In this document: piece by piece, positions 1-60,084 of the stretch
Layout of the letters: each line of letters starts with the position of its first letter
How positions within the stretch are numbered: position 1 is the first letter of the stretch
Assembly (NCBI GenBank): GCA_043802745.1
Contig: JAZDKU010000015.1
Coordinates: 1,358-65,357 of the forward strand
DNA length: 64,000 bases
Reading direction: 5' to 3'
Origin: a bacterium
GTDB lineage: Bacteria > Patescibacteriota > Minisyncoccia > Minisyncoccales > CG1-02-41-26
The notes under the pieces: generated by a model
The model's database searches: none
Told to the model about the DNA's origin: nothing
What the model saw: the letters and a program-made list of their open reading frames with translations, nothing else
Program-made: the position numbers and the translations under genes

Positions 1-435
1 GCCAAATTTTAATAATGGCTTCAAGCCAATGCCATCCATTAAAACAACGCCTGGTCTTCTTATGGACATAGCTTGAAAAGGATGGGCCGCAATTGCTAGC
101 CCACCCTGTTCGTGAATTTGACGAATTGTTTCTTGGACGGTTTGATGCGACTCAATGGTTTTGTTTAAAAATAAGCCAACAATGTGGCCTTCTTGTGAAT
201 TTATTTCTTCACCCACGATTAAGTCAAACCGATAGCCCATTCCTTGCCAAGCTTTTTTTACTTTTAGGGCATTGTCAATGGAATCGTGATCGGTTAGGGC
301 CACAACATCTAAATCAGTTTTTTCCTCAATATAGCTTAAAAGTTCTTTTGGGTCTCTTTCAATTAAATGCACATGCAAATCAGCTTTGCCCAGCCCAGCC
401 ATCTCTTCAATTTTTTTTAAACTAATCTTTGCCAT
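1..435 (-). CDS. PHP-domain metal-dependent phosphoesterase (start codon in window, C-terminus cut by window edge)
   Basis: Reverse strand translates from ATG (rc of 433-435) as MAKISLKKIEEMAGLGKADLHVHLIERD...VVALTDHDSIDN...LAIAAHPF; DLHVH / HD motifs typical of PHP family; absent from ORF track only because no stop lies in the window. Confidence 0.6.
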   Translation of the reverse strand, partial: MAKISLKKIEEMAGLGKADLHVHLIERDPKELLSYIEEKTDLDVVALTDHDSIDNALKVKKAWQGMGYRFDLIVGEEINSQEGHIVGLFLNKTIESHQTVQETIRQIHEQGGLAIAAHPFQAMSIRRPGVVLMDGIGLKPLLKFG

Positions 436-455
436 AATATAATAATATTATAGCA

Positions 456-1049
456 TTATTTGCCTAAATCACCGACATAATAGCCAGCCAAAAGACTGCT
501 GGCGTATTGTGAGTGAGGCAAGCCAATAAAAGCTTGGGTAGCTTCCTTGCCACAATATGGCGTAATGGTATTTCTTCCTCCAGGATGAGTGCTTAAATAA
601 TTAGCAATAGAATAAACTTTATTATTAATAATAATCCAGCAATCCCCGGCTGTATTGTGTTTGGCTATTTGAATAGTTGTTAGTGTAAGGTCTGCGGTCG
701 AAGTGGCATTAATAGCTGGAGACGGAATTTGTGGGTTCGGTGCATAGTATAAAAAAATACATAAAACCAAGATGGCTGTCCAAATAATTCCAGTTATTAT
801 TTTAAAACTTCTTTTATTAAGCGAGTTGTGCCGTGACAACAAACTTATCGTGCCAGTTAAAGAATGCAAGTAAAACAAAGGAACAAATAAAATTGGCGTT
901 AGCACTAAGTGGATATAACGGCTGGTTGAATAATCAAGCCAAGGGGTTAAAGAAAATTTAACCATTAAAAATCCAGACAACAAAAAAACCAAAGTGGTTA
1001 TTGTTAAAAGCCAGGCTGTAGCCCTTAAAATTTTATAAAAATTAAACAT
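456..1049 (-). CDS. membrane protein with C-terminal cytochrome b5-like heme-binding domain
   Basis: N-terminal ~4 hydrophobic helices; C-terminal DCWIIINNKVYSIANYLSTHPGG matches cyt-b5 HPGG heme-binding signature. Confidence 0.55.
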   Translation of the reverse strand: MFNFYKILRATAWLLTITTLVFLLSGFLMVKFSLTPWLDYSTSRYIHLVLTPILFVPLFYLHSLTGTISLLSRHNSLNKRSFKIITGIIWTAILVLCIFLYYAPNPQIPSPAINATSTADLTLTTIQIAKHNTAGDCWIIINNKVYSIANYLSTHPGGRNTITPYCGKEATQAFIGLPHSQYASSLLAGYYVGDLGK

Positions 1050-1659
1050 CCTTTTCTAATTTCTTGGCAATTCTTTTGGTAATTTCACGATAAAGCAACA
1101 CAGCCAAAAGCGCAGCTCCTAAAAAAATTAGCAACACATAGCCCTTATTGTTAGCATATTGACTAATTGCTGTATAACTAGACCCGAAAAAATATCCTAA
1201 AAAAATAAAAAATAGTGTTTTCGGTATGCTAATCAAAGATGCCACTTTAATAAATCTCTTAAAAGGAAACTTGCTATTGCCAACAATGGCAAGGGCTAGG
1301 GGAGAGGCCACTGGCGATATTTTTATAGCTAAAAGGACTTTTTTGCTATGTTTTTCTAAAAGTTTTTTTAATTTCTCTATTCTTTCCTCTGATAGTCCAA
1401 AATAATGGCCATATTTATTAATCACAGCCAGCCGAGTAAGATATCCTGTAAAATACCAAACAAAATCGCCAACAAGGTCGGCAGCGAAAGCTAGGGAAAA
1501 AATAACAAAAACATTTAAATAGCCCAGAGAAGAAGCAAATGCCGAAGCAATAGTAATGAGCGGGCCCTCAACAACCATTATTAAAAATATTAAAAAATAG
1601 CCATGATGAATGGCCCATTGCAAAGCAAGTGGAAATGTTTGGGGTAAAGTAAAAAACAT
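1042..1659 (-). CDS. DedA/VTT (SNARE-associated) family membrane protein
   Basis: Polytopic membrane protein with VTT-domain-like core (LGYLNVFVIFSLAFAADLVGDFVWYFTGY). Confidence 0.6.
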   Translation of the reverse strand: MFFTLPQTFPLALQWAIHHGYFLIFLIMVVEGPLITIASAFASSLGYLNVFVIFSLAFAADLVGDFVWYFTGYLTRLAVINKYGHYFGLSEERIEKLKKLLEKHSKKVLLAIKISPVASPLALAIVGNSKFPFKRFIKVASLISIPKTLFFIFLGYFFGSSYTAISQYANNKGYVLLIFLGAALLAVLLYREITKRIAKKLEKDV

Positions 1660-1671
1660 ATTGTATTTGCC

Positions 1672-2604
1672 TTAACGTTGCCTATATCTCAAATTTTCAA
1701 CTTTACTCGCCACAGCCACTTTTAGCTTGTGGCTTTCTTTTTTAATTTGATAATCAGCAGAGTCAATTTTTTTGTGAACAAAAGCTATTCTTTCTTGAGC
1801 CTTAGCATAAACAGATGGAGAAGAAATAAAGACAAGCAAAACAACTGAAACAATTAAAAGCGGTTCCAAAATTATTTGGCTAACACGGCTTTCCTTTCTT
1901 ATGGGCTTTAATTTATTAAAATTATTTCTTTTTAAAAAAACTCTTGAAAAAGTGGCCGGGCCATAGCGAAGAATCCAAGAAATTAGCCCATATTTAAATC
2001 CTCGCCCTGATGTTTTAACTAAAAAATAAGAGTCTAATTTTACTGTGCCGAATTCTTTTATTCGTTGAGAAATATCATGTTCCTCGTTTATTTGCAGGCT
2101 AATATTAAAACCGCCAGTTTTTAAAAAACAAGTTTTTCTAACTGCAAAATTAGTTCCAGCTAAATTCCAGCCATTGCTTAGAAATTTATCCAAACAATTA
2201 AAGGCGCGAATAGAAGAAAGAAACCCCATTCTTATAAGAAAAGGCCCGGATGATAAATTATAAAGCCCACCAAAAGCGGCTAAGTTTTTATCTTCTTCAA
2301 ACTCTGTTGCTATGGTCGAAAGCCAATTTTCTGGCACAATAGTGTCAGCGTCAGTGTAAGCAATAATCTCACCTAAAGAAGCAACGGCTCCGGCTTGACG
2401 CGCCGAGCCAGTCCCTCTTTTTGGTTCAAAAACAACTTTTACTCCTGCTTGTTTGGCAATTTGGCTGGTTTTGTCAGTACTATTATTATCAACAACAATT
2501 ATTTCAAAATCGCCTTTAAAATCTTGCTTTTTAAGCGAAGTTAAACAAGCAGGCAAATAATCTTCCTCATTGTAAGCTGGCACAACAACTGAAATTTTCA
2601 TCAT
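1672..2604 (-). CDS. family 2 glycosyltransferase
   Basis: ISVVVPAYNEEDYL...DADTIV motifs (GT-A fold, DXD); C-terminal TM helix. Confidence 0.75.
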   Translation of the reverse strand: MMKISVVVPAYNEEDYLPACLTSLKKQDFKGDFEIIVVDNNSTDKTSQIAKQAGVKVVFEPKRGTGSARQAGAVASLGEIIAYTDADTIVPENWLSTIATEFEEDKNLAAFGGLYNLSSGPFLIRMGFLSSIRAFNCLDKFLSNGWNLAGTNFAVRKTCFLKTGGFNISLQINEEHDISQRIKEFGTVKLDSYFLVKTSGRGFKYGLISWILRYGPATFSRVFLKRNNFNKLKPIRKESRVSQIILEPLLIVSVVLLVFISSPSVYAKAQERIAFVHKKIDSADYQIKKESHKLKVAVASKVENLRYRQR

Positions 2605-2610
2605 CCTGTA

Positions 2611-3690
2611 TTATACCTTATTTTCTGGCATTTTGATAATGTCATTGGGCCAGCCGTATTCAGTCGGGTCAAAACCTTGCCCACAAATCGTATCAATAAG
2701 AGCTACTGACACTTGATAAGGGTCAAAATTTGCAGCAGGTCGCCTATCTTCTAAATAGCCTTTGCCTTTGTTATTTGTTTCCATGGGAATACGGATAGAA
2801 GCGCCTCGGTCAGACACGCCATAGCGAAATTCGTAAATACTGCAAGTTTCATGCTTGCCAGTTAAGCGCTTGTCATTATCAGCGCCATAAACCTGAATAT
2901 GCTGATTATGAAATTTTTTTAATTTTTCACAAGCCTCTAAAATAATTTTAATGCCTCCCTCCTCACGCATAGCTTTGGTAGAAAAATTAGTGTGCCCGCC
3001 TGTGCCATTCCAGTCTCCGGCCATAGGTTTTGGGTCAAGCTTGGCATACATTTCAAAATCCTCCCCATGCCTATATAAAATCCAGCGAGCTAGCCATAAT
3101 TGGTCAGAAGATTCAAGTGGATTTAATGGGCCCACTTGAAACTCCCACTGAGCTGGCATAACTTCAGCGTTAATACCGCAAATAGCCAGGCCAGCTTTTA
3201 AGCAATCTTTCAAATGGGCTTCCACTAATTTTCGGCCATAAACCTCATCACAACCAACCCCGCAATAATAACGGCCCTGGGGGTGAGGAAACCCCTGGGA
3301 AGGCCAGCCAACTGGCCAGTCTTTGCGATAAAGCGTATACTCTTGCTCAAAGCCAAAAATTGGCTCTTGCACTTTATGCTTTTCATAAAGCTCAACCAAT
3401 TTTGAGCGGGTATTGGTTTTATGAGGCGTGCCATCAGGATTTAAAACCTCGCACATTACCAAAATATTATTTTCACCCCGAATTGGGTCAGGTATATAAT
3501 AAACTGGCTTTAAGATGCAATCGCTAAAGTGGCCTTGGGCCTGCTCGGTTGAAGAACCATCAAACCCCCACAAAGGCAAGTCAGCTAAAGATAAAACCGG
3601 ACCGTCAACAATTTTTGTTTTTGAACGAAGTTTGGCGGTTGGCTTTTTACCGTCCATCCAAATGTACTCAGCCATTATTTTGTTTGTCAT
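2611..3690 (-). CDS. glnII: glutamine synthetase, type II (eukaryote-like GSII)
   Basis: N-terminus MAEYIWMDGKKP... (classic GSII AEYIWIDG start), 359 aa, catalytic region conserved. Confidence 0.75.
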   Translation of the reverse strand: MTNKIMAEYIWMDGKKPTAKLRSKTKIVDGPVLSLADLPLWGFDGSSTEQAQGHFSDCILKPVYYIPDPIRGENNILVMCEVLNPDGTPHKTNTRSKLVELYEKHKVQEPIFGFEQEYTLYRKDWPVGWPSQGFPHPQGRYYCGVGCDEVYGRKLVEAHLKDCLKAGLAICGINAEVMPAQWEFQVGPLNPLESSDQLWLARWILYRHGEDFEMYAKLDPKPMAGDWNGTGGHTNFSTKAMREEGGIKIILEACEKLKKFHNQHIQVYGADNDKRLTGKHETCSIYEFRYGVSDRGASIRIPMETNNKGKGYLEDRRPAANFDPYQVSVALIDTICGQGFDPTEYGWPNDIIKMPENKV

Positions 3691-6227
3691 AAAGATAATT
3701 TTAGTTTATTTTTAAATAATTTCAACGCTTCAAACCAAATTAAACTTGCGAATACAGCTAAAATCACAAAAAGATAATCTTTTAAATGTAAGTAAGTTAA
3801 ATGGAAAATATTAGAAAGAAATGGGATATATAACACAGATAACATAGCAAGAAAAGTGCCACCCAAAACAACATACAAAGTTTTGTTTTTAGATGAAATA
3901 ATCTGGATAATATTTTTATTCCACGATAGATTTACAACAATAAGCATTATGTTTGACAGCACCAAAGATACAAACGCCAAAGAGCGAGCCTCAACTTCGG
4001 GCCTACCCGACTTAACAGCAAAGAAAAATACTAAAAACACAGCAACCAATATTCCCAACCCCTGTGCTATGCTTATAAGCACAGTTTTGCGATTAAATAT
4101 GGGCTGATGAATGCCCCTTGGTGGCCTGCTCATAATTTTTTTATCTTCTTTTTCTGCTTCAAAAACAGTTGAACAAGCAGGATCAATAATCAATTCCAAA
4201 AAGGCTACATGAATGGGCATTAAAACCACTGGAAAACCAAAAGCCAGCGGAAGTAGAGACATCCCAGCGATTGGCACATGAACAGCCAAGATATATCCCA
4301 TGGCTCTTTTTAAATTATCATATATTCTTCTGCCCAAACGCACTGCCACAACAATTGAAGAAAAATTATCATCCAGCAAAACCAATGAAGAAGCCTCTCT
4401 GGCCACATCTGTGCCCCGCTCGCCCATAGCAATTCCTATATGAGCGGCTTTTAGGGCAGGGGCGTCATTAACCCCATCGCCTGTCATAGCCACAACCTCG
4501 CCATTAGCCTTTAGCGCATTAACGATTAATAATTTTTGTTCTGGCGCCACTCTAGCAAATATATTATTTGTTTTTATTTTTTCTTTTAATTCATCGCCAC
4601 TCATTTTTTCTAATTCATCGCCACTTATATAATTGTCTGTATCTTTTATGCCTATTTCTTTAGCAATAAACTGGGCTGTTCCAGAATAATCCCCAGTTAT
4701 AACAATCACCCTCATTCCAGCGTTATATGCCTCTTTTACCGAAGCAAAAGCATCCGCTCTTGGGGGATCAATAAACCCAAAGAGCCCGGCAAACTCAAAA
4801 TTTAAATCGTGCTGATTTTTTGGTGGCTCGCCAGCTGAAAAATTTGCCCTAGCTCCCGCTAATATTCGCAAGCCATTTTGAGACATTTCTTTAACTATTT
4901 TTAAAGTTTCTGATTTTTCTTTTTCGCTTGCATGGCACAATTTTAAAATTGCTTCTGGAGCACCTTTCGAAGCAATAACAAAATTATTTTCTGATAGTTG
5001 CCAAACTTGGGAAAAAGCTAGCAAGTCCTTTGATAAAGGATACTCTTTTATTAATTTCCAGCCACTAATCGAGCACTGGCTGTCTTTTAAATGCAGGCCT
5101 TCTGCTCTGTGAAGCTCTTTTTCAATTGGGTCAAAGGGATCTTTTTGGCTTGCTAAAAAACCTACTTCTAAAAGATTGCTGAATTCCTCTGATAATTTGC
5201 TATTTTGAGCAAGCTCATCCACATCTAAAAAAGAACCTTGCGCGTGCAAACTAACAAGTTGCATTTTATTTAGCGTTAAAGTTCCAGTTTTGTCAGCGCA
5301 AAGAACAGTGGCGGCTCCCAAAGTTTCAATAACTGCCGAGCGCCTGGCTAAAACTTTTCTTTTGGAAATACGCCATGCCCCTAAAGTTAAAAATATCAAA
5401 AGCACCAGTGGAAATTCCTCAGGCAAAACTGCCATACCAAGCGTTAAGCCTGCTAAAAATCCCTGGACGATACTCCCCCTTGATAGAATATAAATTAACA
5501 CCACTAAAAGACAAAGAAAAAGAACTATTATGGCCACATAGCGCACTATTCTGGCCGTTTCTTTATGTAAAAGCGTGTCTTCATCTTTTATTGTTTCTAT
5601 GCTTTTACCAATTTTTCCCATTTCTGTATTTATTCCAACTGAAAAGACTTTAACGACCCCTCGGCCACTCACCACCAGCGAGCCAGAGTACACAAACGGC
5701 AAATCATCTCCCCCTGGCCTTTGGTGTTCAAGTTTTCCGTCCCATGGTATTTTTCTTACTGGCATTGACTCCCCGGTAAGAAGCGACTCATCTATTAAAA
5801 GATTTTCGCAAGACAAAACAACTGCGTCTGCTGGAACTCTATCGCCTTCACGAATAATAACAATGTCATTCCTAACCACCTCTCGCCCGGGAACCCTTAT
5901 TTGCTGGCCATCTCTTATTACCAATGCTCGGGGGCTTGATAAATGCTTTAAGGCATCAAGCGTTTTTTCAGTTTTTCGGCTTTGATAAAAAGTAATGCCA
6001 ATAATGACAAACACGCAAAATAAAAGCACCAGAGCATCTCTTGGCTCGCCCATAAAAAGATACACTGCTCCACAGCCAACCAATAATAAAAGCATGGGCT
6101 CTGAAAGAACCCTAACCAGCATAAAAAACCAGCTCTGTTTTTTTTGCGATGGCAACTCGTTGTAACCATCTAATAGCAGAGCTTTTTTTGCCTCCTCCCC
6201 CGAGAGACCTGCGATTTGCTTATCCAT
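3687..6227 (-). CDS. P-type cation-transporting ATPase (Ca2+/Mg2+ type II-like)
   Basis: DKTGTLT phosphorylation motif, TGDGVNDAPAL hinge motif, ~10 TM segments, 846 aa. Confidence 0.9.
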   Translation of the reverse strand: MDKQIAGLSGEEAKKALLLDGYNELPSQKKQSWFFMLVRVLSEPMLLLLVGCGAVYLFMGEPRDALVLLFCVFVIIGITFYQSRKTEKTLDALKHLSSPRALVIRDGQQIRVPGREVVRNDIVIIREGDRVPADAVVLSCENLLIDESLLTGESMPVRKIPWDGKLEHQRPGGDDLPFVYSGSLVVSGRGVVKVFSVGINTEMGKIGKSIETIKDEDTLLHKETARIVRYVAIIVLFLCLLVVLIYILSRGSIVQGFLAGLTLGMAVLPEEFPLVLLIFLTLGAWRISKRKVLARRSAVIETLGAATVLCADKTGTLTLNKMQLVSLHAQGSFLDVDELAQNSKLSEEFSNLLEVGFLASQKDPFDPIEKELHRAEGLHLKDSQCSISGWKLIKEYPLSKDLLAFSQVWQLSENNFVIASKGAPEAILKLCHASEKEKSETLKIVKEMSQNGLRILAGARANFSAGEPPKNQHDLNFEFAGLFGFIDPPRADAFASVKEAYNAGMRVIVITGDYSGTAQFIAKEIGIKDTDNYISGDELEKMSGDELKEKIKTNNIFARVAPEQKLLIVNALKANGEVVAMTGDGVNDAPALKAAHIGIAMGERGTDVAREASSLVLLDDNFSSIVVAVRLGRRIYDNLKRAMGYILAVHVPIAGMSLLPLAFGFPVVLMPIHVAFLELIIDPACSTVFEAEKEDKKIMSRPPRGIHQPIFNRKTVLISIAQGLGILVAVFLVFFFAVKSGRPEVEARSLAFVSLVLSNIMLIVVNLSWNKNIIQIISSKNKTLYVVLGGTFLAMLSVLYIPFLSNIFHLTYLHLKDYLFVILAVFASLIWFEALKLFKNKLKLSL

Positions 6228-39929: not shown

Positions 39930-41579
39930 TTATTTTACTATTCCGCTATCGCCATCAACTGAATCGTCGTGGGGCAAGGAAGTATCTTCTGCTTCTGATC
40001 TTTCTGCTATAGCATTGCCAGCAAAACTATCTTCAGCTGTTAACTGGGCTTCGCCAATTAGCAAAGCCACCGAGCCAACCTGTGAGCTATCGGGAACTAA
40101 TTCGATTTGAAAAGCCAAAGTATAGGGAGAATCAAACCCTTGAAAAGCTCTTATGTCGCCTATTGACCAAACTACCTCTCGAGAAGCTGAGTCAAAAGTA
40201 AAAGAAGCTCCTTGTGGATTTGTTTGGCCGGTCAGCCTAACATTAGCTGGCAAAACTGCTTTTACTTTTGCGTTAGTCAAACCATTCCAATAATTTTTAA
40301 TTTGCCAGAAAACAGTGTAGTCCGTGCTTGTGCCAACTTGCGGAGGAATTGGCCCTTTGGCGGTAAAAGCATCGTCTTGATACATAACTTTTTGACTAAA
40401 GTCTATTTTGCCTTGCAGTTTTGTTTCAAAAGCTTTTTCCACTCCGCTTAAAGAAACAGTGTTTCTCAAAATAGGGCTTTCAACCCTTCGGCTAAAAGAA
40501 GTGTCTTTTGTTTTTACCCAAAACTCTACTTTGCCCTCCTCGCTAGCATCTAAAAATCTTAAGCTTTGCACATCTTGCCAATCAAAGATAATCGAGTTGT
40601 CTCCTTGGCCAATGCTTCCGTTTTCTGTTTTTAAGCTATTAAGATCAAAAAAATCGCTGTTTAATTTTACTAAAAGAAATTTTTTCTCCAAAGCAGTTGC
40701 CCCAATATTTTTAAAATAAACTTCATAATGAAGCAAACTTCCAACCCTCATAGATCCGGCTTGGGAGCCATTAACCATTTGAGATATGAAAACAGACGGC
40801 TCGGAAATTTCTATAGACCCTGTCACTTCTTTTAAGGCCATGAAGCCCTTGTCTTTTATAATGCCAATTTGGGCTTTAAAAATTTTTCGCTCGCCTTGCG
40901 TTCCGTTCAACAATCCTTGAATGTTAACCCTGCCACCATTAGCTTGCGTTAGGGTGGGCAAAGACCACTCGGCCACATCCATGCCTTTTGGCTTAGCACT
41001 TTGAAAGGTAAAGCCCGAAGGATAAAACATCTTTAGCCTTAAATTTTCTAAAGGAAAGTTAATATTGGAAAAATAGTTAACTGTAAAACCCAAATCTCCC
41101 CCTTGCTCGGCCTTAACTGGCAAATCAAATTCTAAGGTTAAGGGCACAAAACTTATCTTAGTTGTTAGGTTGGTGTTTGACTCGTATCTTGATTTTAAAT
41201 TTTTAGGGTTATAAAAAAGAGATGCTTTAGCCTGAAGTGTATCATTTTCTTTGCCAATAACTATGGCTTTAAACACTGCTGTTCGCTCTTCTCCGGGATA
41301 AATATCTTCTAGTTTTTTAGTAATTCTTTGTTCAGTATCTTCAATGGGGGAAGCATTGCCCGGATATTCAAAAATAAGCTCAGCTGACTCAAGCCTTACT
41401 TTGCCATTATTTTTAAATTTAACTGTGTAATCAATTTCATCGCCAGCTTGAACTTGTTCTGGACCCAAAATTTCAAGCTTTAAAGCTTCTTTGGAATAGA
41501 TGTTTCCTCGCCAATACCAAAAAGCAATGGCTGCCAAAAAAGCCATGGCTAAAAGAAAAAAGGTTAAGAATTTCCTCAT
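39930..41579 (-). CDS. hypothetical membrane-anchored extracellular protein (repeated beta-sandwich-like segments)
   Basis: N-terminal TM MRKFLTFFLLAMAFLAAIAFWYW, 549 aa. Confidence 0.45.
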   Translation of the reverse strand: MRKFLTFFLLAMAFLAAIAFWYWRGNIYSKEALKLEILGPEQVQAGDEIDYTVKFKNNGKVRLESAELIFEYPGNASPIEDTEQRITKKLEDIYPGEERTAVFKAIVIGKENDTLQAKASLFYNPKNLKSRYESNTNLTTKISFVPLTLEFDLPVKAEQGGDLGFTVNYFSNINFPLENLRLKMFYPSGFTFQSAKPKGMDVAEWSLPTLTQANGGRVNIQGLLNGTQGERKIFKAQIGIIKDKGFMALKEVTGSIEISEPSVFISQMVNGSQAGSMRVGSLLHYEVYFKNIGATALEKKFLLVKLNSDFFDLNSLKTENGSIGQGDNSIIFDWQDVQSLRFLDASEEGKVEFWVKTKDTSFSRRVESPILRNTVSLSGVEKAFETKLQGKIDFSQKVMYQDDAFTAKGPIPPQVGTSTDYTVFWQIKNYWNGLTNAKVKAVLPANVRLTGQTNPQGASFTFDSASREVVWSIGDIRAFQGFDSPYTLAFQIELVPDSSQVGSVALLIGEAQLTAEDSFAGNAIAERSEAEDTSLPHDDSVDGDSGIVK

Positions 41580-49806: not shown

Positions 49807-50058
49807 ATGTTTTACACTTATGTAATAAAAAGTAAAAAAGATAGTAAATTATATGTTGGGCATACAAACGACTTAGTAGCGAGAATAAAAGAACATAATA
49901 ATGGATTTGTTAAGTCAACGAAATCGAGAAAACCTTTCAAGCTACTTTACTATGAAGCTTGTAATATTTTAGAGGACGCAATAAAAAGAGAAAAATCATT
50001 AAAAACTGGATTTGGAAGAAGATATCTTAAACAAAGATTAAGTGATATAAATGTTTAA
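49807..50058 (+). CDS. GIY-YIG nuclease family protein
   Basis: YTYVIKS..LYVGHTNDLVARIKEHN (GIY-YIG). Confidence 0.8.
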   Translation: MFYTYVIKSKKDSKLYVGHTNDLVARIKEHNNGFVKSTKSRKPFKLLYYEACNILEDAIKREKSLKTGFGRRYLKQRLSDINV

Positions 50059-51822: not shown

Positions 51823-52758
51823 TTATTGAAATGGCATCGTAAATTTAAAAGAATCGACCATACTTTGAAAAACTTTTTTCGCTTGCGTGCCGTTATAGGT
51901 TATACAAAACAATAAATATTTATTGCCATCAAAAAAGCAATAACCTCCGTCTGGCCCGCCTAAATCAGCCCAGCCCCCTATTTTCACCGCATCAAAGCCA
52001 GCCACAGCGTAGTCACGGGTTATCTGTATGCCGCCGAGATATTTTACAGCGTCTGATAGTGAAGAAGTGGCGTTTAATGTCCTTATATAATATCCAGAAA
52101 CGACAATAGTATTTTCCAAGCTATCGCTTGGAGTAAAAATGGTTTTATAAGATGATATTTGAGCGCTTGGATCATCGACTCTGTTAATATCATACAGCCT
52201 CCAAGTAGTGGGAAAATTAATGCTAAAATTATAGTTTTTGTTATCATACGCTAACCAGCCCTCAGAGTACTTGCTGGTGGTGTATGTTGTACAATCTTTC
52301 GGGCAATTGCACTGATTTTCGCCCTTGCCACAGACCCCATTACCACAAGCCGCACAAGTATTTTTCACTGGATCCATCGCCAAACTACTCAAGAAGTCTG
52401 GTAGACAACTATAACTAATTGAACCATCTGCATTTTTCCATATATCATAACCAGATACGATTAAATTTAACCCTGAACAGCAAATAGAACCGTCTTTCCA
52501 TCTCTCTCCCTCTTTTACGCAATTGCCTTGGCTTACGGCGTTATCGGATTGATCATTTTTTTGAAGCATTTGTTTCTGCAACGAAGTTATTTGCTGTTGC
52601 AAAGAATCGGCTATTTGATTGGCAGTATTCCTTTGCCACAATAAAACACCAACTAATGCGATTACTAAAACTAACAAGATAACTGGCCAAAGGGGCTTGA
52701 TGCTTTTTTGGCTTAGCTGTTGAGCCGAACTTGGCTGACTAAAATTTTGTTGGTCCAT
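51823..52758 (-). CDS. hypothetical Cys-rich membrane-anchored extracellular protein
   Basis: Start moved to MDQQNF (upstream ORF extension overlaps neighbour); N-terminal TM PLWPVILLVLVIALVGVLLW; CxxCGNGxC motifs resembling giant protein 55219-59481. Confidence 0.5.
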   Translation of the reverse strand: MDQQNFSQPSSAQQLSQKSIKPLWPVILLVLVIALVGVLLWQRNTANQIADSLQQQITSLQKQMLQKNDQSDNAVSQGNCVKEGERWKDGSICCSGLNLIVSGYDIWKNADGSISYSCLPDFLSSLAMDPVKNTCAACGNGVCGKGENQCNCPKDCTTYTTSKYSEGWLAYDNKNYNFSINFPTTWRLYDINRVDDPSAQISSYKTIFTPSDSLENTIVVSGYYIRTLNATSSLSDAVKYLGGIQITRDYAVAGFDAVKIGGWADLGGPDGGYCFFDGNKYLLFCITYNGTQAKKVFQSMVDSFKFTMPFQ

Positions 52759-52774
52759 ATGATTTGATTGCTTG

Positions 52775-53563
52775 TTAAAACGCCCTAAAAGAAAGAAGAA
52801 TTTTTTGCAATAATTTATCAGCATCAATATCAGAAATCGCATTTGGGCCTGTTGGGTCAGTCCGTAAGTAGCCTAAATAAAAATTATTATTATTCATTGT
52901 TGGCATACTAAAGCATGCGTAACGGATTCCGTCCGAACATCGGTCTAACAATGGCTTCGGATGAGATCTTTTATACTCAGAGGCACATTGATCATCTTGC
53001 CTAATAGCAGAAGTAATTTTTGAGCCATCGCCATTAATTTTATAATCTATATTACAGTATTCCATGCCAAATCCTAAGGGATTAGCATACAAAACAAATT
53101 TTATTTGGCTTGTTGGAAAAGAGTTATTAAAAAATTCTATATTTTGAAACGCAATAGTATCTTGCGTGGTTGTTGGCAGGGTATTCTTTATACCCCACTG
53201 CTCGGGGTAACTTATTTCAAAACCGTAAGCTTCATTTCTGTAAGTCTGGGTAAGGGGATACTTTTCCTCCTTGTCTTGCACGGTAATCTTGATTTCTTTG
53301 CTTTTAATGAGAGTACTTACCTGATTCGCAACGTAAGCAATTTTTCCTTGGAGTTTGCTAATTATTGAACCAGATGACTTATTTTGCCAAAAGTAAACTC
53401 CTCCCCCAACAATTATAGCTGTAAAAATCATTAGCATCACCACCCAAAATGGTCGCACACCTGTTCTGTTTGGTTCGGAATTTATAATAACATTCGGCTG
53501 TTCTTCTTCTAGATGCTCCGCATCTAATTGATCAGTAAATTGATTTTCAAACCTTTGTCCCAT
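52775..53563 (-). CDS. hypothetical single-pass membrane-anchored extracellular protein
   Basis: TM FWVVMLMIFTAIIVGGGVYFW after acidic cytoplasmic N-tail. Confidence 0.5.
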   Translation of the reverse strand: MGQRFENQFTDQLDAEHLEEEQPNVIINSEPNRTGVRPFWVVMLMIFTAIIVGGGVYFWQNKSSGSIISKLQGKIAYVANQVSTLIKSKEIKITVQDKEEKYPLTQTYRNEAYGFEISYPEQWGIKNTLPTTTQDTIAFQNIEFFNNSFPTSQIKFVLYANPLGFGMEYCNIDYKINGDGSKITSAIRQDDQCASEYKRSHPKPLLDRCSDGIRYACFSMPTMNNNNFYLGYLRTDPTGPNAISDIDADKLLQKILLSFRAF

Positions 53564-53568
53564 ATGAT

Positions 53569-54576
53569 TTATTCCACTACCAGCTCTGGCTGGTAGTATT
53601 TATTTAATCTTACTTTTTCTAACACAACATTGTCAATTTTTTTATTTTTTATTTCTACTCGCAAAAGCCCGCCTTCCATTGTTTCTTTAGAAAAATACTG
53701 GTCAAAAACAAAATTGCCCAAAGAATAAGCAATCCAACCATTATTATATTTTTCTAATGGCTCAACCACATGCGGATGATGACCAATTATTAAATCCGCT
53801 CCTGAATCAATGGCCATTTTACCAAACTCTTTTTGAAAAGCGTTAGACAATGGCTGATATTCTGTTCCTGCGTGAATTGAAACAGCCAAAATATCAACCT
53901 GCTTTTTACTTTGGCTAATTATCTCTTTTATTTTAGAAAAATCTTCACCAACCCAAGCCATGCCAATTTTGCCGTCCCCAACTTTCCAGCTATTTGGGCT
54001 AAAATTTTCAAACCCTAAAAAACCAACTTTAGTTCCTTGAATTTCTTTTATTCTCAAACTAAATGCTTCCTGCTCGTTTAGCCCTGCCCCAACATAGTCA
54101 ATGCCAGCTTTTTGCAAATTAGCCATTGTATCAGCTAGAGCCACAGCTTGATAATCAAACATATGATTATTAGCAATTGACAAAATATCAAAGCCAGCAT
54201 TTTTTAAAGCCAAAGTTGAAGTTGGAGAAAATCGAAAAGAATAAATACTGCCAACCTTAATACCACGGCTTGAAATTGGCCCCTCTAAATTGCCAAAAAG
54301 AATATCAGCCTGACTTAAATAATCTTTTATATTAGCAAAAGCAAAGTTAAAATCACCTTTACCATATTTATCAATCATATACTTAACAGCCCTCTCAAGC
54401 ATAATATCCCCCACAGCCATTAAAATAATCGGCTGGGTATCTTTTGCGAGGCCAGCGGGACTAATATTTGCAGACAAAATAGAAACTTCTGATTTTTTTG
54501 CATAAATAAAAAAACCAGCCACCAAAAAACACGCTCCAAATAGAATCCAAAATATTAGGGCTAAAAATCTTTTCAT
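53569..54576 (-). CDS. CapA/PgsA-family metallophosphatase (poly-gamma-glutamate capsule biosynthesis-like)
   Basis: N-terminal TM, calcineurin-like phosphoesterase motifs (GDIMLER, NLEGP, GHHPH). Confidence 0.75.
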   Translation of the reverse strand: MKRFLALIFWILFGACFLVAGFFIYAKKSEVSILSANISPAGLAKDTQPIILMAVGDIMLERAVKYMIDKYGKGDFNFAFANIKDYLSQADILFGNLEGPISSRGIKVGSIYSFRFSPTSTLALKNAGFDILSIANNHMFDYQAVALADTMANLQKAGIDYVGAGLNEQEAFSLRIKEIQGTKVGFLGFENFSPNSWKVGDGKIGMAWVGEDFSKIKEIISQSKKQVDILAVSIHAGTEYQPLSNAFQKEFGKMAIDSGADLIIGHHPHVVEPLEKYNNGWIAYSLGNFVFDQYFSKETMEGGLLRVEIKNKKIDNVVLEKVRLNKYYQPELVVE

Positions 54577-54721
54577 TAAAACACTTTAGAAGAAATAAAC
54601 CACATAAGCAATATGCCCCCAATACCAATAAGCACCCAAGTCAAGCTAATCTTTTGAGGTGGCTCTACTGGAATTGGCGTTTGCTCTTGAGTGGGCGGTT
54701 GATTTGTGTTTTGTTCTGCTG

Positions 54722-55222
54722 TTACCATAAAAATGATTTTAAAATAGAAATAAATGCCTTAGCAAATAAGAAAATGGCTAAGCCAATGGAGGCCCAAATA
54801 ATTATTTGCTTGCCTTTGGTTGACCTTTTTGAGTCCCCGGCCGCCGTGAGCATATAAAACGCGCCAAGTAAAATCATCAAAGGCGCCACCACCAAGGCTA
54901 TAACCAATGCCCAATTTGAAACTTTATTAACAAGGTCTTTAATTTCTTTATTAGAAGAAAAAGAACAATAAGTAATTTTATTAGGATCTTTGCATTGACC
55001 ATAGTCACCCGAAAAGATCGGCTTGTCATCCGTGCCACCTTGTTTGCATGGATTATCACCATCGCTTTTGGACCCCACACAATCAGCACCACTTATGCAG
55101 TTAGTTTTTACACAACAAGGATAGCAAATCCCCTGATTTCCAGCTTTGGCAAAATTAGACCAAAAGCTAAAAACTAAAACTGCTAATAAAATTACTGAAT
55201 AAAATTTTAGTACTTTTTTCAT
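54722..55222 (-). CDS. small secreted Cys-rich protein with conserved C-terminal two-helix membrane module (paralogous to C-terminus of 55219-59481)
   Basis: Signal peptide; 12 Cys in ~90 aa; C-terminal LVIALVVAPLMILLGAFYMLTAAGDSKRSTKGKQIIIWASIGLAIFLFAKAFISIL. Confidence 0.6.
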   Translation of the reverse strand: MKKVLKFYSVILLAVLVFSFWSNFAKAGNQGICYPCCVKTNCISGADCVGSKSDGDNPCKQGGTDDKPIFSGDYGQCKDPNKITYCSFSSNKEIKDLVNKVSNWALVIALVVAPLMILLGAFYMLTAAGDSKRSTKGKQIIIWASIGLAIFLFAKAFISILKSFLW

Positions 55223-58200
55223 TTTAGGACCGAGGTGATGATAGAGATAAACGCTTTAGCAGTTAAAATAACAGCCAAGCCAATTATTGCCCAAGTAAGA
55301 ATTGTCTTGCCTTTAGTTGAGCGAGCTGGCTCCCCGGCGGCTGTTAACATATAAAACCCACCAAGCAAAATCATTAACGGCGCAATAACCAAAGCCAGAT
55401 AAAACAACCACTTTGCTAAAGAATTAATCAAGCACTCAAAGCTAGTGTGAGTTGTTATTGGGCAAAAAGCAATCTGCCCAATTGGCATACACTGCCCAGA
55501 AGCAGGCTCTGTTTTGTTTGAACACTCTAACGAGGCATTACATTGATCCTTAGGCGTTGCAGTATCCTTGCATGGACCACAAAACTCCATCTCCTTCGGC
55601 GCTGAATCACACTCATCTTTTTTTGCCGGAAGAACATCGCCATCAGCGGCTATGGCCACATTTGAGAAGTGGGTGGTTTGGGCAGTGAGGGTTTGGGTTG
55701 TTGGGTTCACAACAGTGTCTTTTAAAATTTCGTAGTTATTAGTAATGGCGCTGAAAAGAACAATGCGCAAGGCCTTTTCCTGCTCATCATTTAAACCCAA
55801 ACCGCTTTTGCTATATTTTGTAACAACTGTAATTTGCTTGGAAAAGTTATGAATTTCCTCGCCCTTGAGCGTCTTAATAGAAACATGAAACATAAAAGGG
55901 CCTAGCAAATTTGTATTGCTTGATGATTGCACCGAGAAAAACGGCGCTTTGTTAGCAAAATCAGGATCATTTTTTGGCATTGACTCTATGGCCACAGCCA
56001 CGTCTTCGGTAAAAGTGTTTGGGCTTATGATTAATTTTATACTCAAATTTGTTTTACTCATTTCCACTGTACCCCCTTCAGCTGGCTTTATAATCTTCCC
56101 GCTAGGAACCGGGGTGATCGGTGTAATTGGGATAACTGGAGTTGAACAATCTCCGGGCACAAATGTTTTCTTATTGCATTGAGCCATACATGCATTGGCA
56201 TAAACTACGCCATCACTCCCGCATACTTTGTCACTGCCCGAACAAGCAAACTCGCATTGAGCTTTATTAAAACAATTATTGCCAAAAACACCAAGAAATC
56301 CTTTGGTAAAAATACAATCCGGACCAAAAGCAAGGCATTCTTTTTCATCACAAACATTCAAAATTCCGTTTCCGCAATCCAAGCAAGTAGCTGTTGCACA
56401 TTTGCATTGGCCATCACTCCCGCACACTTGCTTCTGGCCACTCGCACACATGGGTGTACAATCTGCATCACTAGAACATTTATAAGGTAACACCGACCCC
56501 CCTTGGCACTCACATTGCTGTTTATAACATGTTGGATTCTTGCCCCCAGAGCAAGGAAAACTTGCACATTCTTTGTTTTGTTTGCAAGTAACAACATCTT
56601 TGGAGCTACTTAACAAATGAAAATTAGCGGATACATCATAAACATTGCTTCGAGAAGCCAACTTTATTTCAGCATCTTTATAGCCAGACGCCCCCCTAAC
56701 AACCGCTGTATAGCTATGCTCTGGAGAAAAGGTTAGAGCCGGTATAGTACATTTTCCTCGCGGGTCGCTGGTTACACAGCTTGCCACTTGACTGCCTTTG
56801 TCAAGAATAGAAACCGAAATTCCTGGCAAGTCCTCGCTAGTATAATTATCATCAACATGAACAAGAATTCTTTTTTGTAATGTATTATTTAAGCAAAAAC
56901 ATTCTTTTGGTTTTATGGTTGTGCCATAGATATCTTTTACTTCGCAAATTGGTGTTTGGTCTGCTTGGCAAGTTATTGTTTTAGTGCATTCTGAATCTTG
57001 AGAGCAAGTTAAATTTTTACAAAAACATTTTTTATCAGCGCCACAAGCTGGCTCTGTTATTTTTGTTTCATTGTTTGGACAGGTTGTGAGATAACCACAG
57101 TCATCTTTTGTGTTGCAGGGTTTGGCGCAAAAAACGCAATAATTACCGCCTTGCTTATCGCAAAAAGAATCACTTAAAAATTGATGCGAAACTTTATCAG
57201 CTTGGCCACAAACCGTGTCAAGACCGTCTTCTTTGGCGCAAAAACCGCCAAAAGTAGAGGACATATTAGGACAATTAATTAAACAAGCGCCATCATAACA
57301 ACCAGCTGGGCAAGCAGTTACCTTTGGCCAGCCATTACAATCATATTGCGCCACAGATGGTCCTTCTAATGAGGGAATATAAGAGAAAGAGGCATTAGTT
57401 ATACAATGGTCAATTATTGAGTTAAACCCGCCAGTAGCTAGCGCCGTTATATACCTTACCGCCCCCTTGGTATATTCATCTCCTCCATCAGTTCGCGAGC
57501 AATAAGGCGAGGGGCTCCCCTGCACTTTTGTCATTTTAGCCACTAATTTAACTGTGACATCACTATTATTTATTTCAAAGTCAGTAAAACATCCTCCAGG
57601 CTCATCCCAGCAAAACTGATAATCAATTATATAGGCTCGGTATTCTCCGTTTGGCAGTGAAAAAACGCATTTTTGAGGCGGGTTAATGGCAAAGCATTCT
57701 TGTTGAGGCAAGGCCTGGCTTTCGCCTTTTTTAACAATACCCACACGAACTCCCCAAGAATCATTCAAATCAATAGTTGCCTTAAATGCTGTTTGCGTGT
57801 TTTTATAAAGCGCTATTTGCACAGGAGCCATATTTAAAACAGCATCAAAATTTACTGTATTGTTTGTAAAAAATCCTTGAGCAGAAACTTGGGTAGAGTA
57901 ATTTTGCGTAGGAAAAGCTTCTGTATTATAGCCAAGGGGTATTAATTCATTAGTAAGGCAAGAGCCGTTTTGGTCAGTCACGCAAGAACCAACTTGCTTT
58001 TGCTGGCTGTCAAAAACTTTTATATTTGCTTGAGAAACTGCTTGGCCATTATCAGTTGTAATTTTAAAAGAAATTTTTTGCTCGGTGACAGCTGGAACAC
58101 AAGAGCAAGTGCGTTTTTGCTTATCGCACTTAGCAAGATAATCACTGCTTGCGCAACCATTAGTAGTGGCGCACTCTTGGTCATTGGCACAACCACCAGG

Positions 58201-59481
58201 AGAACATTTCCCGCCAACTATGTAAGAGCTAAAAAGACAGTGTGGGTCTATAGCAAAGCACTCATTTTTATCGCAAAGATTAAAAATTCCATTGCCACAG
58301 TCCGGACATTTTTTTATTTGCGCTAGAGCAGGCACCACATTAAAATATCCGTCGCTTATATCTTTGCCGGCCTGGCCACCAAACTGCGTTGTCTCGGTGA
58401 TGATAATTCTTAAATTGTCCGTTGGTTTCCAAATGCCGTTTGATGTAAAAAAATCGCTTTGTATTTCCCATGGGTAGGACATACTTGTGCCTCCTTGGTC
58501 TAGGGCGCCTTTTACTGGCTTATTGCTGTTTGTGGCTATAATTTTATAGGCCTGGGGAGATGTTTGGTCAACATAATCATAATTCCAAATGGCAATACTA
58601 ATTAAACTGTCAGGATTTTGAGTTTTCCATTTGATTTGATACAACTGACCTGCTTGCCAGCTTTCCCCGCCATTAGGAGATGAAACTGTAAGTCCAGCAG
58701 AAGGAACAAATTCCCCTCCCGAGCCTCCTCCTAGATTACCGCTAGGCAATGGCAGGCCACAAGCACTTTGTTTATAAATTAATGTATCAAAAGGCGGACA
58801 ATTGCCCGAACAACATTGGCTATGAGAGCTACAAAAAGTACCAAGCCCTAAGCATGGTTTACAAAAATAATTAACACAAACATTGGGCGAGCAACAATCA
58901 GAGCTAAGCACACAAGAATCATTGGCAACCTTGCAACCTGAAATTATGGGGTCTGGCTTGCAGATATTATCCTTTGGGTCGCAAATATATGGCGAGCAAC
59001 AATTATTTTTTATATCACCAGGGACACAGCCCTGACCAATATTAAAACATACCTTTGAATCTGGACATTGAGGTGGCACAGATGGCCCGCTATCAACACA
59101 CTTATTGCCACAACAATTTTTTGACGCGCATTGCGCGCTCTCTGTGCAATAATCCCCCAAAACAAACTCGCCTGGCTTGTTTTTAACGCAACGGTATTCG
59201 TTTGGAGTGCCGATGAAAAGGTATTCATAACCACAGCATGTATTAAACCCGTGTAAATAAGATTCCCCTGGAATAGTGTCACAACATTTTTTAATAGTAT
59301 TATCTCCGAAGACTAAACATCTATCTGATGTGTTGCAACAACTATTAGAGTCTAAACAAGCTTCTCCTTTTGCTACACAATTAGATTGAGCTTTAACAGT
59401 AAATCCGTGGGCTAAATAAAAAGCTGAACCTAAAAAAATTAGTCCAGCGATAATTAAAAACCATTTTTGTTTTTGCGCCAT
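55219..59481 (-). CDS. giant (1420 aa) secreted Cys-rich multidomain surface protein with Kazal-like domain and C-terminal two-helix membrane module
   Basis: Start taken at MAQKQKW (signal peptide; upstream extension runs through terminator hairpin); >120 Cys; CGSDGVVYANACMAQC Kazal signature; SSPNGGESWQAGQLYQIKW beta-sandwich motif; CarbopepD_reg-like ISFKITTDNGQAVSQANIKVFD; C-terminal LVIAPLMILLGGFYMLTAAGEPARSTKGKTILTWAIIGLAVILTAKAFISII. Confidence 0.7.
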   Translation of the reverse strand: MAQKQKWFLIIAGLIFLGSAFYLAHGFTVKAQSNCVAKGEACLDSNSCCNTSDRCLVFGDNTIKKCCDTIPGESYLHGFNTCCGYEYLFIGTPNEYRCVKNKPGEFVLGDYCTESAQCASKNCCGNKCVDSGPSVPPQCPDSKVCFNIGQGCVPGDIKNNCCSPYICDPKDNICKPDPIISGCKVANDSCVLSSDCCSPNVCVNYFCKPCLGLGTFCSSHSQCCSGNCPPFDTLIYKQSACGLPLPSGNLGGGSGGEFVPSAGLTVSSPNGGESWQAGQLYQIKWKTQNPDSLISIAIWNYDYVDQTSPQAYKIIATNSNKPVKGALDQGGTSMSYPWEIQSDFFTSNGIWKPTDNLRIIITETTQFGGQAGKDISDGYFNVVPALAQIKKCPDCGNGIFNLCDKNECFAIDPHCLFSSYIVGGKCSPGGCANDQECATTNGCASSDYLAKCDKQKRTCSCVPAVTEQKISFKITTDNGQAVSQANIKVFDSQQKQVGSCVTDQNGSCLTNELIPLGYNTEAFPTQNYSTQVSAQGFFTNNTVNFDAVLNMAPVQIALYKNTQTAFKATIDLNDSWGVRVGIVKKGESQALPQQECFAINPPQKCVFSLPNGEYRAYIIDYQFCWDEPGGCFTDFEINNSDVTVKLVAKMTKVQGSPSPYCSRTDGGDEYTKGAVRYITALATGGFNSIIDHCITNASFSYIPSLEGPSVAQYDCNGWPKVTACPAGCYDGACLINCPNMSSTFGGFCAKEDGLDTVCGQADKVSHQFLSDSFCDKQGGNYCVFCAKPCNTKDDCGYLTTCPNNETKITEPACGADKKCFCKNLTCSQDSECTKTITCQADQTPICEVKDIYGTTIKPKECFCLNNTLQKRILVHVDDNYTSEDLPGISVSILDKGSQVASCVTSDPRGKCTIPALTFSPEHSYTAVVRGASGYKDAEIKLASRSNVYDVSANFHLLSSSKDVVTCKQNKECASFPCSGGKNPTCYKQQCECQGGSVLPYKCSSDADCTPMCASGQKQVCGSDGQCKCATATCLDCGNGILNVCDEKECLAFGPDCIFTKGFLGVFGNNCFNKAQCEFACSGSDKVCGSDGVVYANACMAQCNKKTFVPGDCSTPVIPITPITPVPSGKIIKPAEGGTVEMSKTNLSIKLIISPNTFTEDVAVAIESMPKNDPDFANKAPFFSVQSSSNTNLLGPFMFHVSIKTLKGEEIHNFSKQITVVTKYSKSGLGLNDEQEKALRIVLFSAITNNYEILKDTVVNPTTQTLTAQTTHFSNVAIAADGDVLPAKKDECDSAPKEMEFCGPCKDTATPKDQCNASLECSNKTEPASGQCMPIGQIAFCPITTHTSFECLINSLAKWLFYLALVIAPLMILLGGFYMLTAAGEPARSTKGKTILTWAIIGLAVILTAKAFISIITSVLK

Positions 59482-59505
59482 ATTTTTTAAAAAATTATTC
59501 CCACA

Positions 59506-59555
59506 GACCCCACTCCTCCGCTCCGCCAACTGGCGGACGGCGGAGGGGTGGGGTC
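59506..59555 (-). terminator. GC-rich hairpin terminator after methyltransferase gene (gaccccactcctccgc ... gcggaggggtggggtc)
   Basis: 16-bp stem abutting stop codon; shares CCCCACYCCTC core with topA/metG in-frame element. Confidence 0.6.
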
Positions 59556-60084
59556 AAGTGCTGTTTATAAACAAAAGCCCGTAGTGATAACCGCTAGTTT
59601 CAATTTTTTTCTCCAAAACAAAATCTTGTTCTTCGGCAATCTCTTGAACGCGACCCGCAGAAACACGGCTTTCTTGCATGGGTCCAAAAGGCGATTCCAT
59701 ATCCCACTCAATTACTAAAACTTTTCCGCTTTGTTTTAAAACTCTTTTTGCTTCTTTAAAAACCGCGCTTTTGTCATCAATTTGAAATAAAAGATTTGTC
59801 ATTAGCACAATATCACAAGAATTATTTTCTATTTGCTTTATGCCTCTTTCAATATCAGCTAAAACTTTTTTAATATTATTTATGCCTTGCAGGTTCGCCT
59901 TGCTCATCAATGCTGACAATGCGTTTTCTTGCACATCAACAGCATAGACAACACCGTCTTCTAATTTGCTGGCCAAAGGAATCACCCATCCGCCCGAGCC
60001 ACAACCAAAATCAGCTGCTATCATATCTTTTTCAAGCGCTAATTGATTTAAAATTTCATTTGGATCTAAAAACCCTGTTGGCAT
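59554..60084 (-). CDS. class I SAM-dependent methyltransferase
   Basis: DFGCGSGGWVIPLA motif I. Confidence 0.75.
   Translation of the reverse strand: MPTGFLDPNEILNQLALEKDMIAADFGCGSGGWVIPLASKLEDGVVYAVDVQENALSALMSKANLQGINNIKKVLADIERGIKQIENNSCDIVLMTNLLFQIDDKSAVFKEAKRVLKQSGKVLVIEWDMESPFGPMQESRVSAGRVQEIAEEQDFVLEKKIETSGYHYGLLFINST

Follow-up and report, generated by a model that had tools for sequence, protein, structure and literature searches.

Six tightly packed open reading frames (ORFs) lie on the minus strand of a 64-kb stretch of a Patescibacteria contig (JAZDKU010000015.1; the whole stretch is hereafter called the window), between positions 51823 and 59481. Five of them were found where an earlier annotation made from the sequence (the original prediction) had placed them, whereas the sixth, a 50-amino-acid (aa) ORF at 54576-54728, had been overlooked. 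The core of the region is a two-gene module of VirB2-like pilins (PF18895) belonging to a Paceibacteria-type Patescibacterium, and not an island centred on the CapA gene. The first gene (55219-59481) encodes a giant protein of 1420 aa; the second (54722-55222), whose start overlaps the stop of the first by 4 nt, encodes a small pilin of 166 aa. The assignment of the organism to the Patescibacteria was borne out, as was the secreted or membrane-anchored nature proposed for the products. Hydropathy profiles reveal a signal peptide and two C-terminal helices in the giant and in the 166-aa protein, an N-terminal signal or anchor segment in CapA, and one transmembrane (TM) segment in each of the 339-aa and 262-aa proteins encoded further downstream.

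The pilin module and the giant ectodomain

The giant is predicted to comprise a Sec signal peptide, a mosaic of approximately 1100 aa that combines disulfide-rich modules with Ig-like and prealbumin-like sandwiches, a GAIN_B/ZU5-like 'MAIN' domain, and a complete small-pilin unit made up of an 8-Cys knob and a helical hairpin. In the window, 49 ORFs were scanned against family libraries, and both members of the pair scored above the curated cut-off of 26.6 bits for PF18895, the type IV secretion system (T4SS) pilin family T4SS_pilin: the 166-aa protein with 45.5 bits (E 7.9e-12), and the giant with 40.8 bits as a whole (E 2.4e-10) and 47.1 bits as a C-terminal segment. The helical hairpin of the giant spans aa 1347-1420 (55222-55443, minus strand) and is preceded by a Cys-rich knob with 7 Cys (aa 1289-1346; 55444-55617). 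The knob is homologous to the N-terminal domain of the small pilin, as seen in P0035, a 211-aa relative that consists of a giant-type pilin module with no ectodomain; its C-terminal 133 aa are 80% identical to those of the giant and align with small pilins.

The small pilin itself comprises a signal peptide, an 8-Cys knob and a VirB2-like hairpin. It is 100% identical to P0020, which carries the NCBI name 'MAG: pilin' (MAG, metagenome-assembled genome), and it also matches the NCBIfam pilin-like conjugal transfer protein at E 1.1e-5, a score below the cut-off of that family. The AlphaFold2 (AF2) model exhibits a helical hairpin (helices 94-126 and 131-165, pLDDT ~80), in which a short basic loop with the conserved sequence TAAGD/E-x-x-R/K-S-T-K-G-K joins the two hydrophobic helices. 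The C-termini of the giant and the 166-aa protein are 55% identical over 91 aa. The original prediction had described this shared two-helix anchor as unusual; it is indeed common to the two proteins, but it belongs to a known family. As adjacent paralogues whose pilin domains share this 55% identity, the two genes form a minimal pilin array.

Arrays of this kind are frequent in the Candidate Phyla Radiation (CPR). A survey of 3,035 Patescibacteria genomes located VirB2-like pilins in 1,948 assemblies, with 441 arrays of 2-11 divergent genes (PMC12102498). The pair resembles the described arrays (PMC12102498, PMC10633639) in its PF18895 match, its signal peptides and two-helix hairpins, its organization as two adjacent divergent paralogues, and its occurrence in Paceibacteria-type MAGs. 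In contrast, the pilins of those arrays are treated as small proteins, whereas the giant adds an N-terminal extension of approximately 1270 aa that includes a GAIN/ZU5-like domain, and there is no virB4 gene nearby. The searched portions of the two papers make no mention of long pilin fusions.

An exhaustive HMMER search with the C-terminal 134 aa of the giant retrieved 6729 cluster representatives at E<=1e-3. Among the best 150, which were inspected for architecture, the median length is 184 aa, and seven are at least 1200 aa long and carry the pilin domain at the C-terminus. Six further proteins, P0045 (820 aa), P0046 (606 aa), P0059, P0127, P0150 and P0153, contain 5-8 tandem VirB2-like pilin domains in a single polypeptide, and several of these 'poly-pilins' are nearly free of cysteine.

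The ectodomain of the giant was mapped by scanning segments against Pfam, by matching regular expressions, and by searching PDB sequences. The protein contains 110 Cys (7.7%), fewer than the 120 or more counted originally. The signal peptide, recognised by hydropathy and conserved in the homologue P0001, covers aa 1-32 (MAQKQKWFLIIAGLIFLGSAFYLAHGFTVKAQ; 59386-59481, minus strand as for all segments of the gene). It is followed by four putative knottin-like modules (aa 33-245; 58747-59385) with 34 Cys in the pattern C-x6-C-x5-6-CC-x-C; the evidence for these is weak and consists of the regular expression and of low-scoring PDB sequence matches to spider inhibitor cystine knot toxins (E 0.011-0.06). 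The next segment is an Ig-like domain resembling Kre9/KNH (aa 268-385; 58327-58680). The Kre9/KNH motif named in the original prediction lies below the Pfam cut-off (E 5.8e-4, with values of 6e-4 to 4e-3 across scans), but proteins bearing PF10342 do align with the giant in this region, with E values down to 2e-19. Two Cys modules of the CxDCGNG type (aa 391-466 and 962-1074), recognised by regular expression and segment-wise Pfam scans, adjoin two copies of a CarboxypepD_reg-like β-sandwich. The first copy covers aa 470-560 (57802-58074) and the second aa 872-958 (56608-56868; segment E 0.002-0.003), the latter being 62% identical to its counterpart in the L004 orthologue. Together they reach 32.4 bits against a cut-off of 32.3, in agreement with the CarboxypepD_reg-like segment originally proposed. 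A Pro-rich linker (aa 1113-1127) closes the mosaic. A blastp self-comparison at E<=0.01 detected no internal repeats, though the paired CxDCGNG and CarboxypepD_reg-like copies are visible.

A word-indexed search of 5.8 billion proteins returned only two near homologues of the giant, the other matches being confined to the Kre9-like domain, and membership in one known adhesin family was rejected on these grounds. The original prediction recognised no characterised homologue of this architecture; the anchor, however, belongs to the already surveyed family PF18895. The closest described counterparts of the ectodomain are the large Cys-rich extracellular proteins of CPR bacteria reported from Peribacteria (PMC4736985), which likewise possess a signal peptide, more than 1000 aa, ~7% Cys and strain-variable sequences, and for which a role in attachment was proposed. 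Compared by description, those proteins differ in having no defined anchor or processing domain.

The original prediction named a Kazal signature. The module is real, and is located at 56146-56259 (aa 1075-1112, CEFACSGSDKVCGSDGVVYANACMAQC...C), but its score is borderline and it occurs in only some orthologues. Kazal_2 (cut-off 22.8 bits) reaches 29.2 bits on an isolated 50-aa segment but drops to 22.4 bits when 220 aa are scanned, and is unreported for the whole giant at E<=1. Independent support comes from the PDB sequence matches (E 0.003-0.08), the best of which are non-classical inhibitors: LDTI (E 0.003), infestin and dipetalin, together with an elastase inhibitor. Six cysteines (C1076, C1080, C1087, C1098, C1102 and C1112) conform to the six-Cys framework with its C3-GSDG-x-x-Y-x-N-x-C4 core, and the spacing and the VCGSDG-x-x-YAN-x-C core are shared with LDTI (1an1/1ldt), infestin and dipetalin. 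Unlike those inhibitors, the module sits within a 1420-aa protein, its C2-C3 loop (C-S-G-S-D-K-V-C) is one residue shorter than that of LDTI, and glycine occupies the aligned, predicted P1 position. Nor is the module conserved across orthologues: it is present in P0001 and P0002, a Kazal-like segment occurs in the L003 orthologue, and it is missing from those of L002 and L004. Inhibition of proteases is therefore putative, and its proposal as a function of the locus is conjecture. In a distant orthologue of the giant, P0072 (L083, 10001-14590), a weak Antistasin match takes the place of the Kazal module; this may represent an alternative protease-inhibitor-like Cys module or mere Cys-rich composition.

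A GAIN/ZU5-like domain preceding the pilin

Between the ectodomain and the pilin unit lies the most informative part of the giant, which the original prediction missed: a Cys-free β-sandwich (aa 1128-1282; 55636-56100) that was recognised by aligning the C-terminal 320 aa of long pilin-domain proteins. In this alignment the domain measures approximately 150 aa and ends in T-A-Q-T-x-H-F-S. The terminal motif is present in all ten homologues, as HFS in six, HFT in two, HLT in one and SFS in one, even though the domains are only 20-31% identical to that of the window, the near-identical P0001 excepted. In the giant the motif is H1271-F1272-S1273 (55663-55671), and the predicted autoproteolytic site is the F-S bond.

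AF2 modelling from a nine-sequence alignment yielded a β-sandwich with pLDDT 84.3 and pTM 0.80, in which HFS occupies the turn that connects the two final strands (model residues 137-144 and 147-153). The fold-match values of this model are 11.0 for the ankyrin ZU5 domain, 10.3 for CD97 GAIN, 8.8 for CELSR1 GAIN, 8.4 for UNC5B, 7.8 for BAI3 GAIN, 7.5 for CARD8 FIIND and 6.7 for NLRP1 FIIND. As modelled, the domain of the giant adopts a GAIN_B/ZU5-type β-sandwich fold.

MAIN domains, which are microbial GAIN-like autoproteolytic domains, are defined by such a fold together with an HX(S/T) motif, usually HFS, in proteins that consist of a signal peptide, adhesion or enzyme domains, the MAIN domain and a surface anchor (10.64898/2026.05.12.724683). 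In one of these, Bacillus subtilis YfkN, cleavage of HFS between F and S was demonstrated by Edman sequencing (10.64898/2026.05.12.724683), and ZU5-superfamily autopeptidases in large bacterial surface proteins had been noted before (Zhang et al. 2012; PMC3482391). The giant resembles proteins with MAIN, GAIN, ZU5 or FIIND domains (Brogan & Rudner 2026; YfkN) in the H-F-S turn before the last strand, in the position of the domain between an adhesion-type ectodomain and an anchor, and in a size of ~150 kDa. It differs from MAIN proteins in its anchor: where those have a sortase signal, an SLH domain or a wall-binding domain, the giant has a VirB2-like pilin hairpin. Patescibacteria are outside the phyla named in the preprint, which mentions neither Patescibacteria nor pilins; the likeness is one of predicted fold and motif, with no sequence-level match in Pfam, NCBIfam or the PDB, and cleavage of the giant is a prediction.

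A hidden Markov model (HMM) of the β-domain matched every single-pilin-domain protein of at least 823 aa among the best 150 pilin-module matches and none that was shorter, as well as the giants of loci L002-L004. Since the matches are limited to long fusions, the domain goes together with a large passenger, which is also the case in MAIN proteins. The predicted cleavage would yield an 8-Cys C-terminal fragment of 148 aa, compared with 139 aa and 8 Cys in the mature small pilin. The possibility that the ZU5-like domain marks a polymorphic toxin was rejected, as the giant possesses neither RHS repeats nor a C-terminal toxin and ends in a pilin.

A domain of the same kind with an S-F-S motif (TSDSFSIFGLF) was also observed in a partial ORF (L074, 2-1270, plus strand) from a MAG labelled Gammaproteobacteria that also encodes a CapA relative. 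Inspection by eye suggests a peptidoglycan-binding-like C-terminus after the domain, which would correspond to the canonical layout of a MAIN domain plus a wall anchor.

Proposed attachment and cleavage, and possible pilus display

Comparison with related loci separates the giant into parts that evolve at very different rates. Loci L001-L005 are from relatives, L001-L004 carrying positional orthologues of the giant (1285-1719 aa), and L082-L087 are further loci with giants. Between the window and L002-L004 the pilin hairpin is 70-78% identical and the MAIN-like domain 24-30%, whereas the ectodomain regions are 8-62% identical (most 12-41%) with shuffled modules; the neighbouring CapA proteins are 71-79% identical. 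Divergence of this kind in the ectodomain is typical of surface proteins that experience diversifying pressure. The hairpin is constrained beyond the need of a passive anchor. A role in attachment to a host or neighbour, raised in the original prediction, agrees with this pattern, the giant resembling a fast-evolving attachment protein. The pairing of giant and small pilin is itself conserved, in L001-L004, L082, L085 and L086/87.

We consider it probable, with moderate confidence, that the giant is a self-cleaving, pilin-anchored adhesin. After export, the hairpin would enter the membrane with the N-terminus outside, and the MAIN-like domain would cleave itself between F1272 and S1273. The ectodomain of approximately 1240 aa would remain non-covalently attached through hydrogen bonds to the last β-strand, which is part of the 148-aa pilin-like fragment. 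This fragment would be anchored in the membrane, and the mature small pilin of 139 aa is its probable partner. The ectodomain may bind the surface of a host or neighbouring cell and be shed under mechanical load.

Several observations weigh against this interpretation. The β-domain gave no match to Pfam ZU5 or GPS (E<=10, 9 homologues), to NCBIfam, or to any relevant PDB sequence, and the domain used alone as a homologue query returned no matches. Since the sequence libraries provided no match, the MAIN assignment rests on the predicted fold and the motif; it thus depends on a model from a nine-sequence alignment, from which cleavage at F1272-S1273 is predicted. The connection of PF18895 to genuine VirB2 is weak as well: the small pilin matches TrbC/VirB2 (PF04956, cut-off 27.9 bits) with 15.1 bits (E 0.027), the small-pilin alignment, used as a profile against the PDB, found no pilin, and a Foldseek search with the small-pilin model returned non-significant helical hairpins, the archaeal conjugation pilin 8dfu ranking 4th (E 1.3). 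No gene for T4SS machinery (VirB4, VirB6, VirB3/PrgI or TrsD) was found among the 49 window ORFs scanned, nor in the 10-kb flanks of the L082-L087 giants. Two loci depart from the common arrangement: L083 contains a giant without a small pilin, and the L005 giant has neither a pilin domain nor a detectable MAIN-like domain, a separate 165-aa pilin gene following it directly. The L005 protein (24-3952) is Cys-rich, longer than 1151 aa, and built of similar modules together with dockerin-like DxNxDG repeats, next to a CapA protein 58% identical to that of the window; the arrangement looks like a fission or fusion variant of the same locus.

The 148-aa fragment may instead be a true pilin that is extracted from the membrane and polymerised with the small pilin by a T4SS encoded elsewhere, such that a conjugative-type pilus would carry the giant ectodomain along its length or at its tip, as a force-releasable device for host capture. 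The fragment produced by cleavage would match the small pilin closely in size and Cys count, the conservation of the hairpin and its loop goes far beyond what passive anchoring requires, and the paralogous small pilin gene is nearly always paired with the giant. VirB2-like pilin arrays are, moreover, widespread in CPR bacteria (PMC12102498), the pilin array and T4SS are essential in Southlakia (PMC10633639), and in ~40% of pilin-bearing CPR assemblies the pilins are located away from virB4 (PMC12102498). This possibility is nevertheless unlikely in our view, in that neither the window nor any of the flanks examined contains a T4SS gene, the literature searched contains no visualised pilus of a CPR T4SS, and the structural link to VirB2 is non-significant. 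A 1240-aa passenger on each subunit is also sterically implausible, and the giant could therefore be a minor subunit only.

Alternatively, the ZU5-like domain may serve a structural or binding function only, as in ankyrin, the giant being an intact membrane-anchored adhesin with the hairpin as a two-pass anchor. The lack of a sequence-level match to any autoproteolytic family is consistent with such a non-cleaving scaffold. We find it doubtful, given that His and Ser/Thr are retained at the same turn in nine of the ten homologues, the tenth having SFS, the NLRP1-type motif, despite the low sequence identity; that the domain is confined to long fusions; and that it lies between ectodomain and anchor, precisely where MAIN and GAIN domains are placed.

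For the self-cleaving adhesin favoured here, the constituents are known already: VirB2-like pilins of CPR bacteria, MAIN/GAIN-like autoproteolytic surface proteins, and large Cys-rich CPR ectoproteins (PMC4736985). Their fusion into a protein with a pilin, a MAIN-like domain and a giant ectodomain, recurring across a clade, appears to be new. No description of a pilin fused to a MAIN/GAIN-like domain was found in the full-text literature searched, nor any paper in which 'GAIN domain' occurs together with Patescibacteria. A bulky adhesive module is also carried by modular type IV pilins such as Streptococcus sanguinis PilB and PilC. Those proteins have an unrelated pilin fold and machinery (type IV pili, not VirB2 and T4SS), the module is located C-terminal to the pilin domain, and it is not known to be released by autoproteolysis.

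With the fusion, the recently described MAIN-domain architecture would gain both a further phylum and a further type of anchor. In the only genetically tractable Patescibacterium, VirB2-like pilins and the T4SS are essential to epibiotic life, but their role has been called completely unknown (PMC11665869, PMC12857230). The recurrence of pilins that are joined, through a predicted self-cleaving GAIN-like domain, to giant and rapidly evolving passengers of adhesin type points to host attachment or release as one task of these pilins. A bolder and rather improbable extension is that T4SS-type pili of Patescibacteria are adhesion organelles, in which a subset of VirB2-like pilins would be made as giant precursors that cleave themselves to normal-sized pilins, co-polymerise with the small pilin and hold, non-covalently, a hypervariable host-binding ectodomain of ~1240 aa. 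If true, host cells would be captured by a tether that is sensitive to force and can be released. No earlier pilin would then have been matured by a GAIN/ZU5-type domain, and CPR pilin arrays would have a first proposed function.

CapA and the neighbouring genes

The CapA gene (53569-54576, minus strand) encodes a metallophosphatase-fold protein with an N-terminal anchor, and its family assignment in the original prediction was confirmed by PGA_cap at E 7.8e-71. CapA loci were compared across 80 GTDB genomes. Only the four closest relatives, L002-L004 (CapA 71-79% identical) and L005 (58%), have pilin-domain ORFs next to CapA, and no pilin gene was found near CapA in the 75 more distant loci. 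In the window and in L002-L004 the genes form a collinear block: MBL, gyrA, a methyltransferase gene, the giant, the small pilin, CapA, rplT/rpmI/infC, smpB and argS. This block is found again in L083 and L086/87. As the whole gyrA-argS stretch is collinear, the adjacency of CapA is uninformative. The synteny of CapA with the giant and its small paralogue holds in L002-L004 and L086/87, whereas CapA is lost from the pilin pair in L085, where PolX replaces it in the same block, and in L082, where the context is different.

The original prediction had treated five genes as one unit, in which CapA would make or decorate an anionic polymer (poly-gamma-glutamate) or a proteinaceous surface layer and the Kazal module would inhibit host proteases. 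The close packing or overlap of the genes, all in one orientation, would fit a single transcript, CapA adjoins the pilin pair or its counterpart in the window, L002-L005, L083 and L086/87, and the Kazal-like motif does match inhibitors; such an island is still very improbable given the uninformative adjacency, the pilin pairs without CapA, the 75 pilin-free CapA loci, the absence of PgsB (Mur-ligase-like) and PgsC among the 49 window ORFs scanned, the poor conservation of the 339-aa and 262-aa genes, which are missing or variable in relatives, and the features of the Kazal module described above. CapA, the two single-pass proteins and the 50-aa ORF share their orientation with the pilin pair as neighbours in a collinear housekeeping block; CapA is probably co-transcribed and looks like a bystander. 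More generally, gene adjacency to CapA in the compact collinear genomes of CPR bacteria should not be read as a functional link.

The 5' boundary of the unit is probably set by a GC-rich hairpin followed by a U-run (59489-59560, minus strand), which is likely to be an intrinsic terminator. It is located just after the stop of the upstream methyltransferase gene and leaves ~7 nt before the ATG of the giant. The stem of ~24 bp has a folding energy of -46.9 kcal/mol (z -7.33), a value that none of 200 shuffled sequences equalled. The hairpin occurs once in the window, and a repeated element was rejected on that account. A TTG at 59529 falls inside the hairpin and was therefore rejected as the start of the giant; the ATG at 59481, which yields 1420 aa, is the plausible start.

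The unannotated 50-aa ORF (54576-54728, minus strand; MVTAEQ...LLMWFISSKVF) contains a single TM segment. It overlaps both the small-pilin stop and the ATG of CapA (TAATG), and is translationally coupled to both genes. It is conserved in L001-L005: in L002-L005 it directly precedes CapA, in L001 it follows the small pilin, and no homologue was detected in the more distant CapA loci.

The two variable neighbours lie downstream of CapA on the same strand. One (52775-53563) encodes a single-pass ectoprotein of 262 aa, which matches a PsbP_2-like domain weakly and for which no homologue was detected in L002-L004; the other (51823-52842) encodes a 339-aa single-pass ectoprotein with 13 Cys, whose homologues were found in L002 only. 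A start of the latter at M29 (nt 52758, 311 aa) seems more likely and would avoid the overlap with the upstream gene. The two proteins are 27% identical over the TM and juxtamembrane region.

Other genes lie in or near the block in relatives. Toxin-antitoxin pairs of the HigB-like and AbiEii/DUF6922 types lie between CapA and rplT in L086 (4140-4421 and 17120-17997) and L087 (13598-14475), and this interval of the collinear block therefore accepts insertions. A multi-TM, MFS_1-like protein of ~210 aa follows the pilin gene or genes in L003 (8863-9504), L083 (14601-15233) and L085 (7370-8005) and is absent from the window. Elsewhere in the window, a gene between tRNA-synthetase and recO genes (39930-41579, minus strand) encodes what is probably another surface protein, 549 aa long and containing DUF11 and DUF7619 repeats. 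A stand-alone GIY-YIG ORF of 83 aa (49807-50058, plus strand) between smpB and infC may be a small mobile nuclease, and a similar 85-aa GIY-YIG gene is found near the giant in L082.

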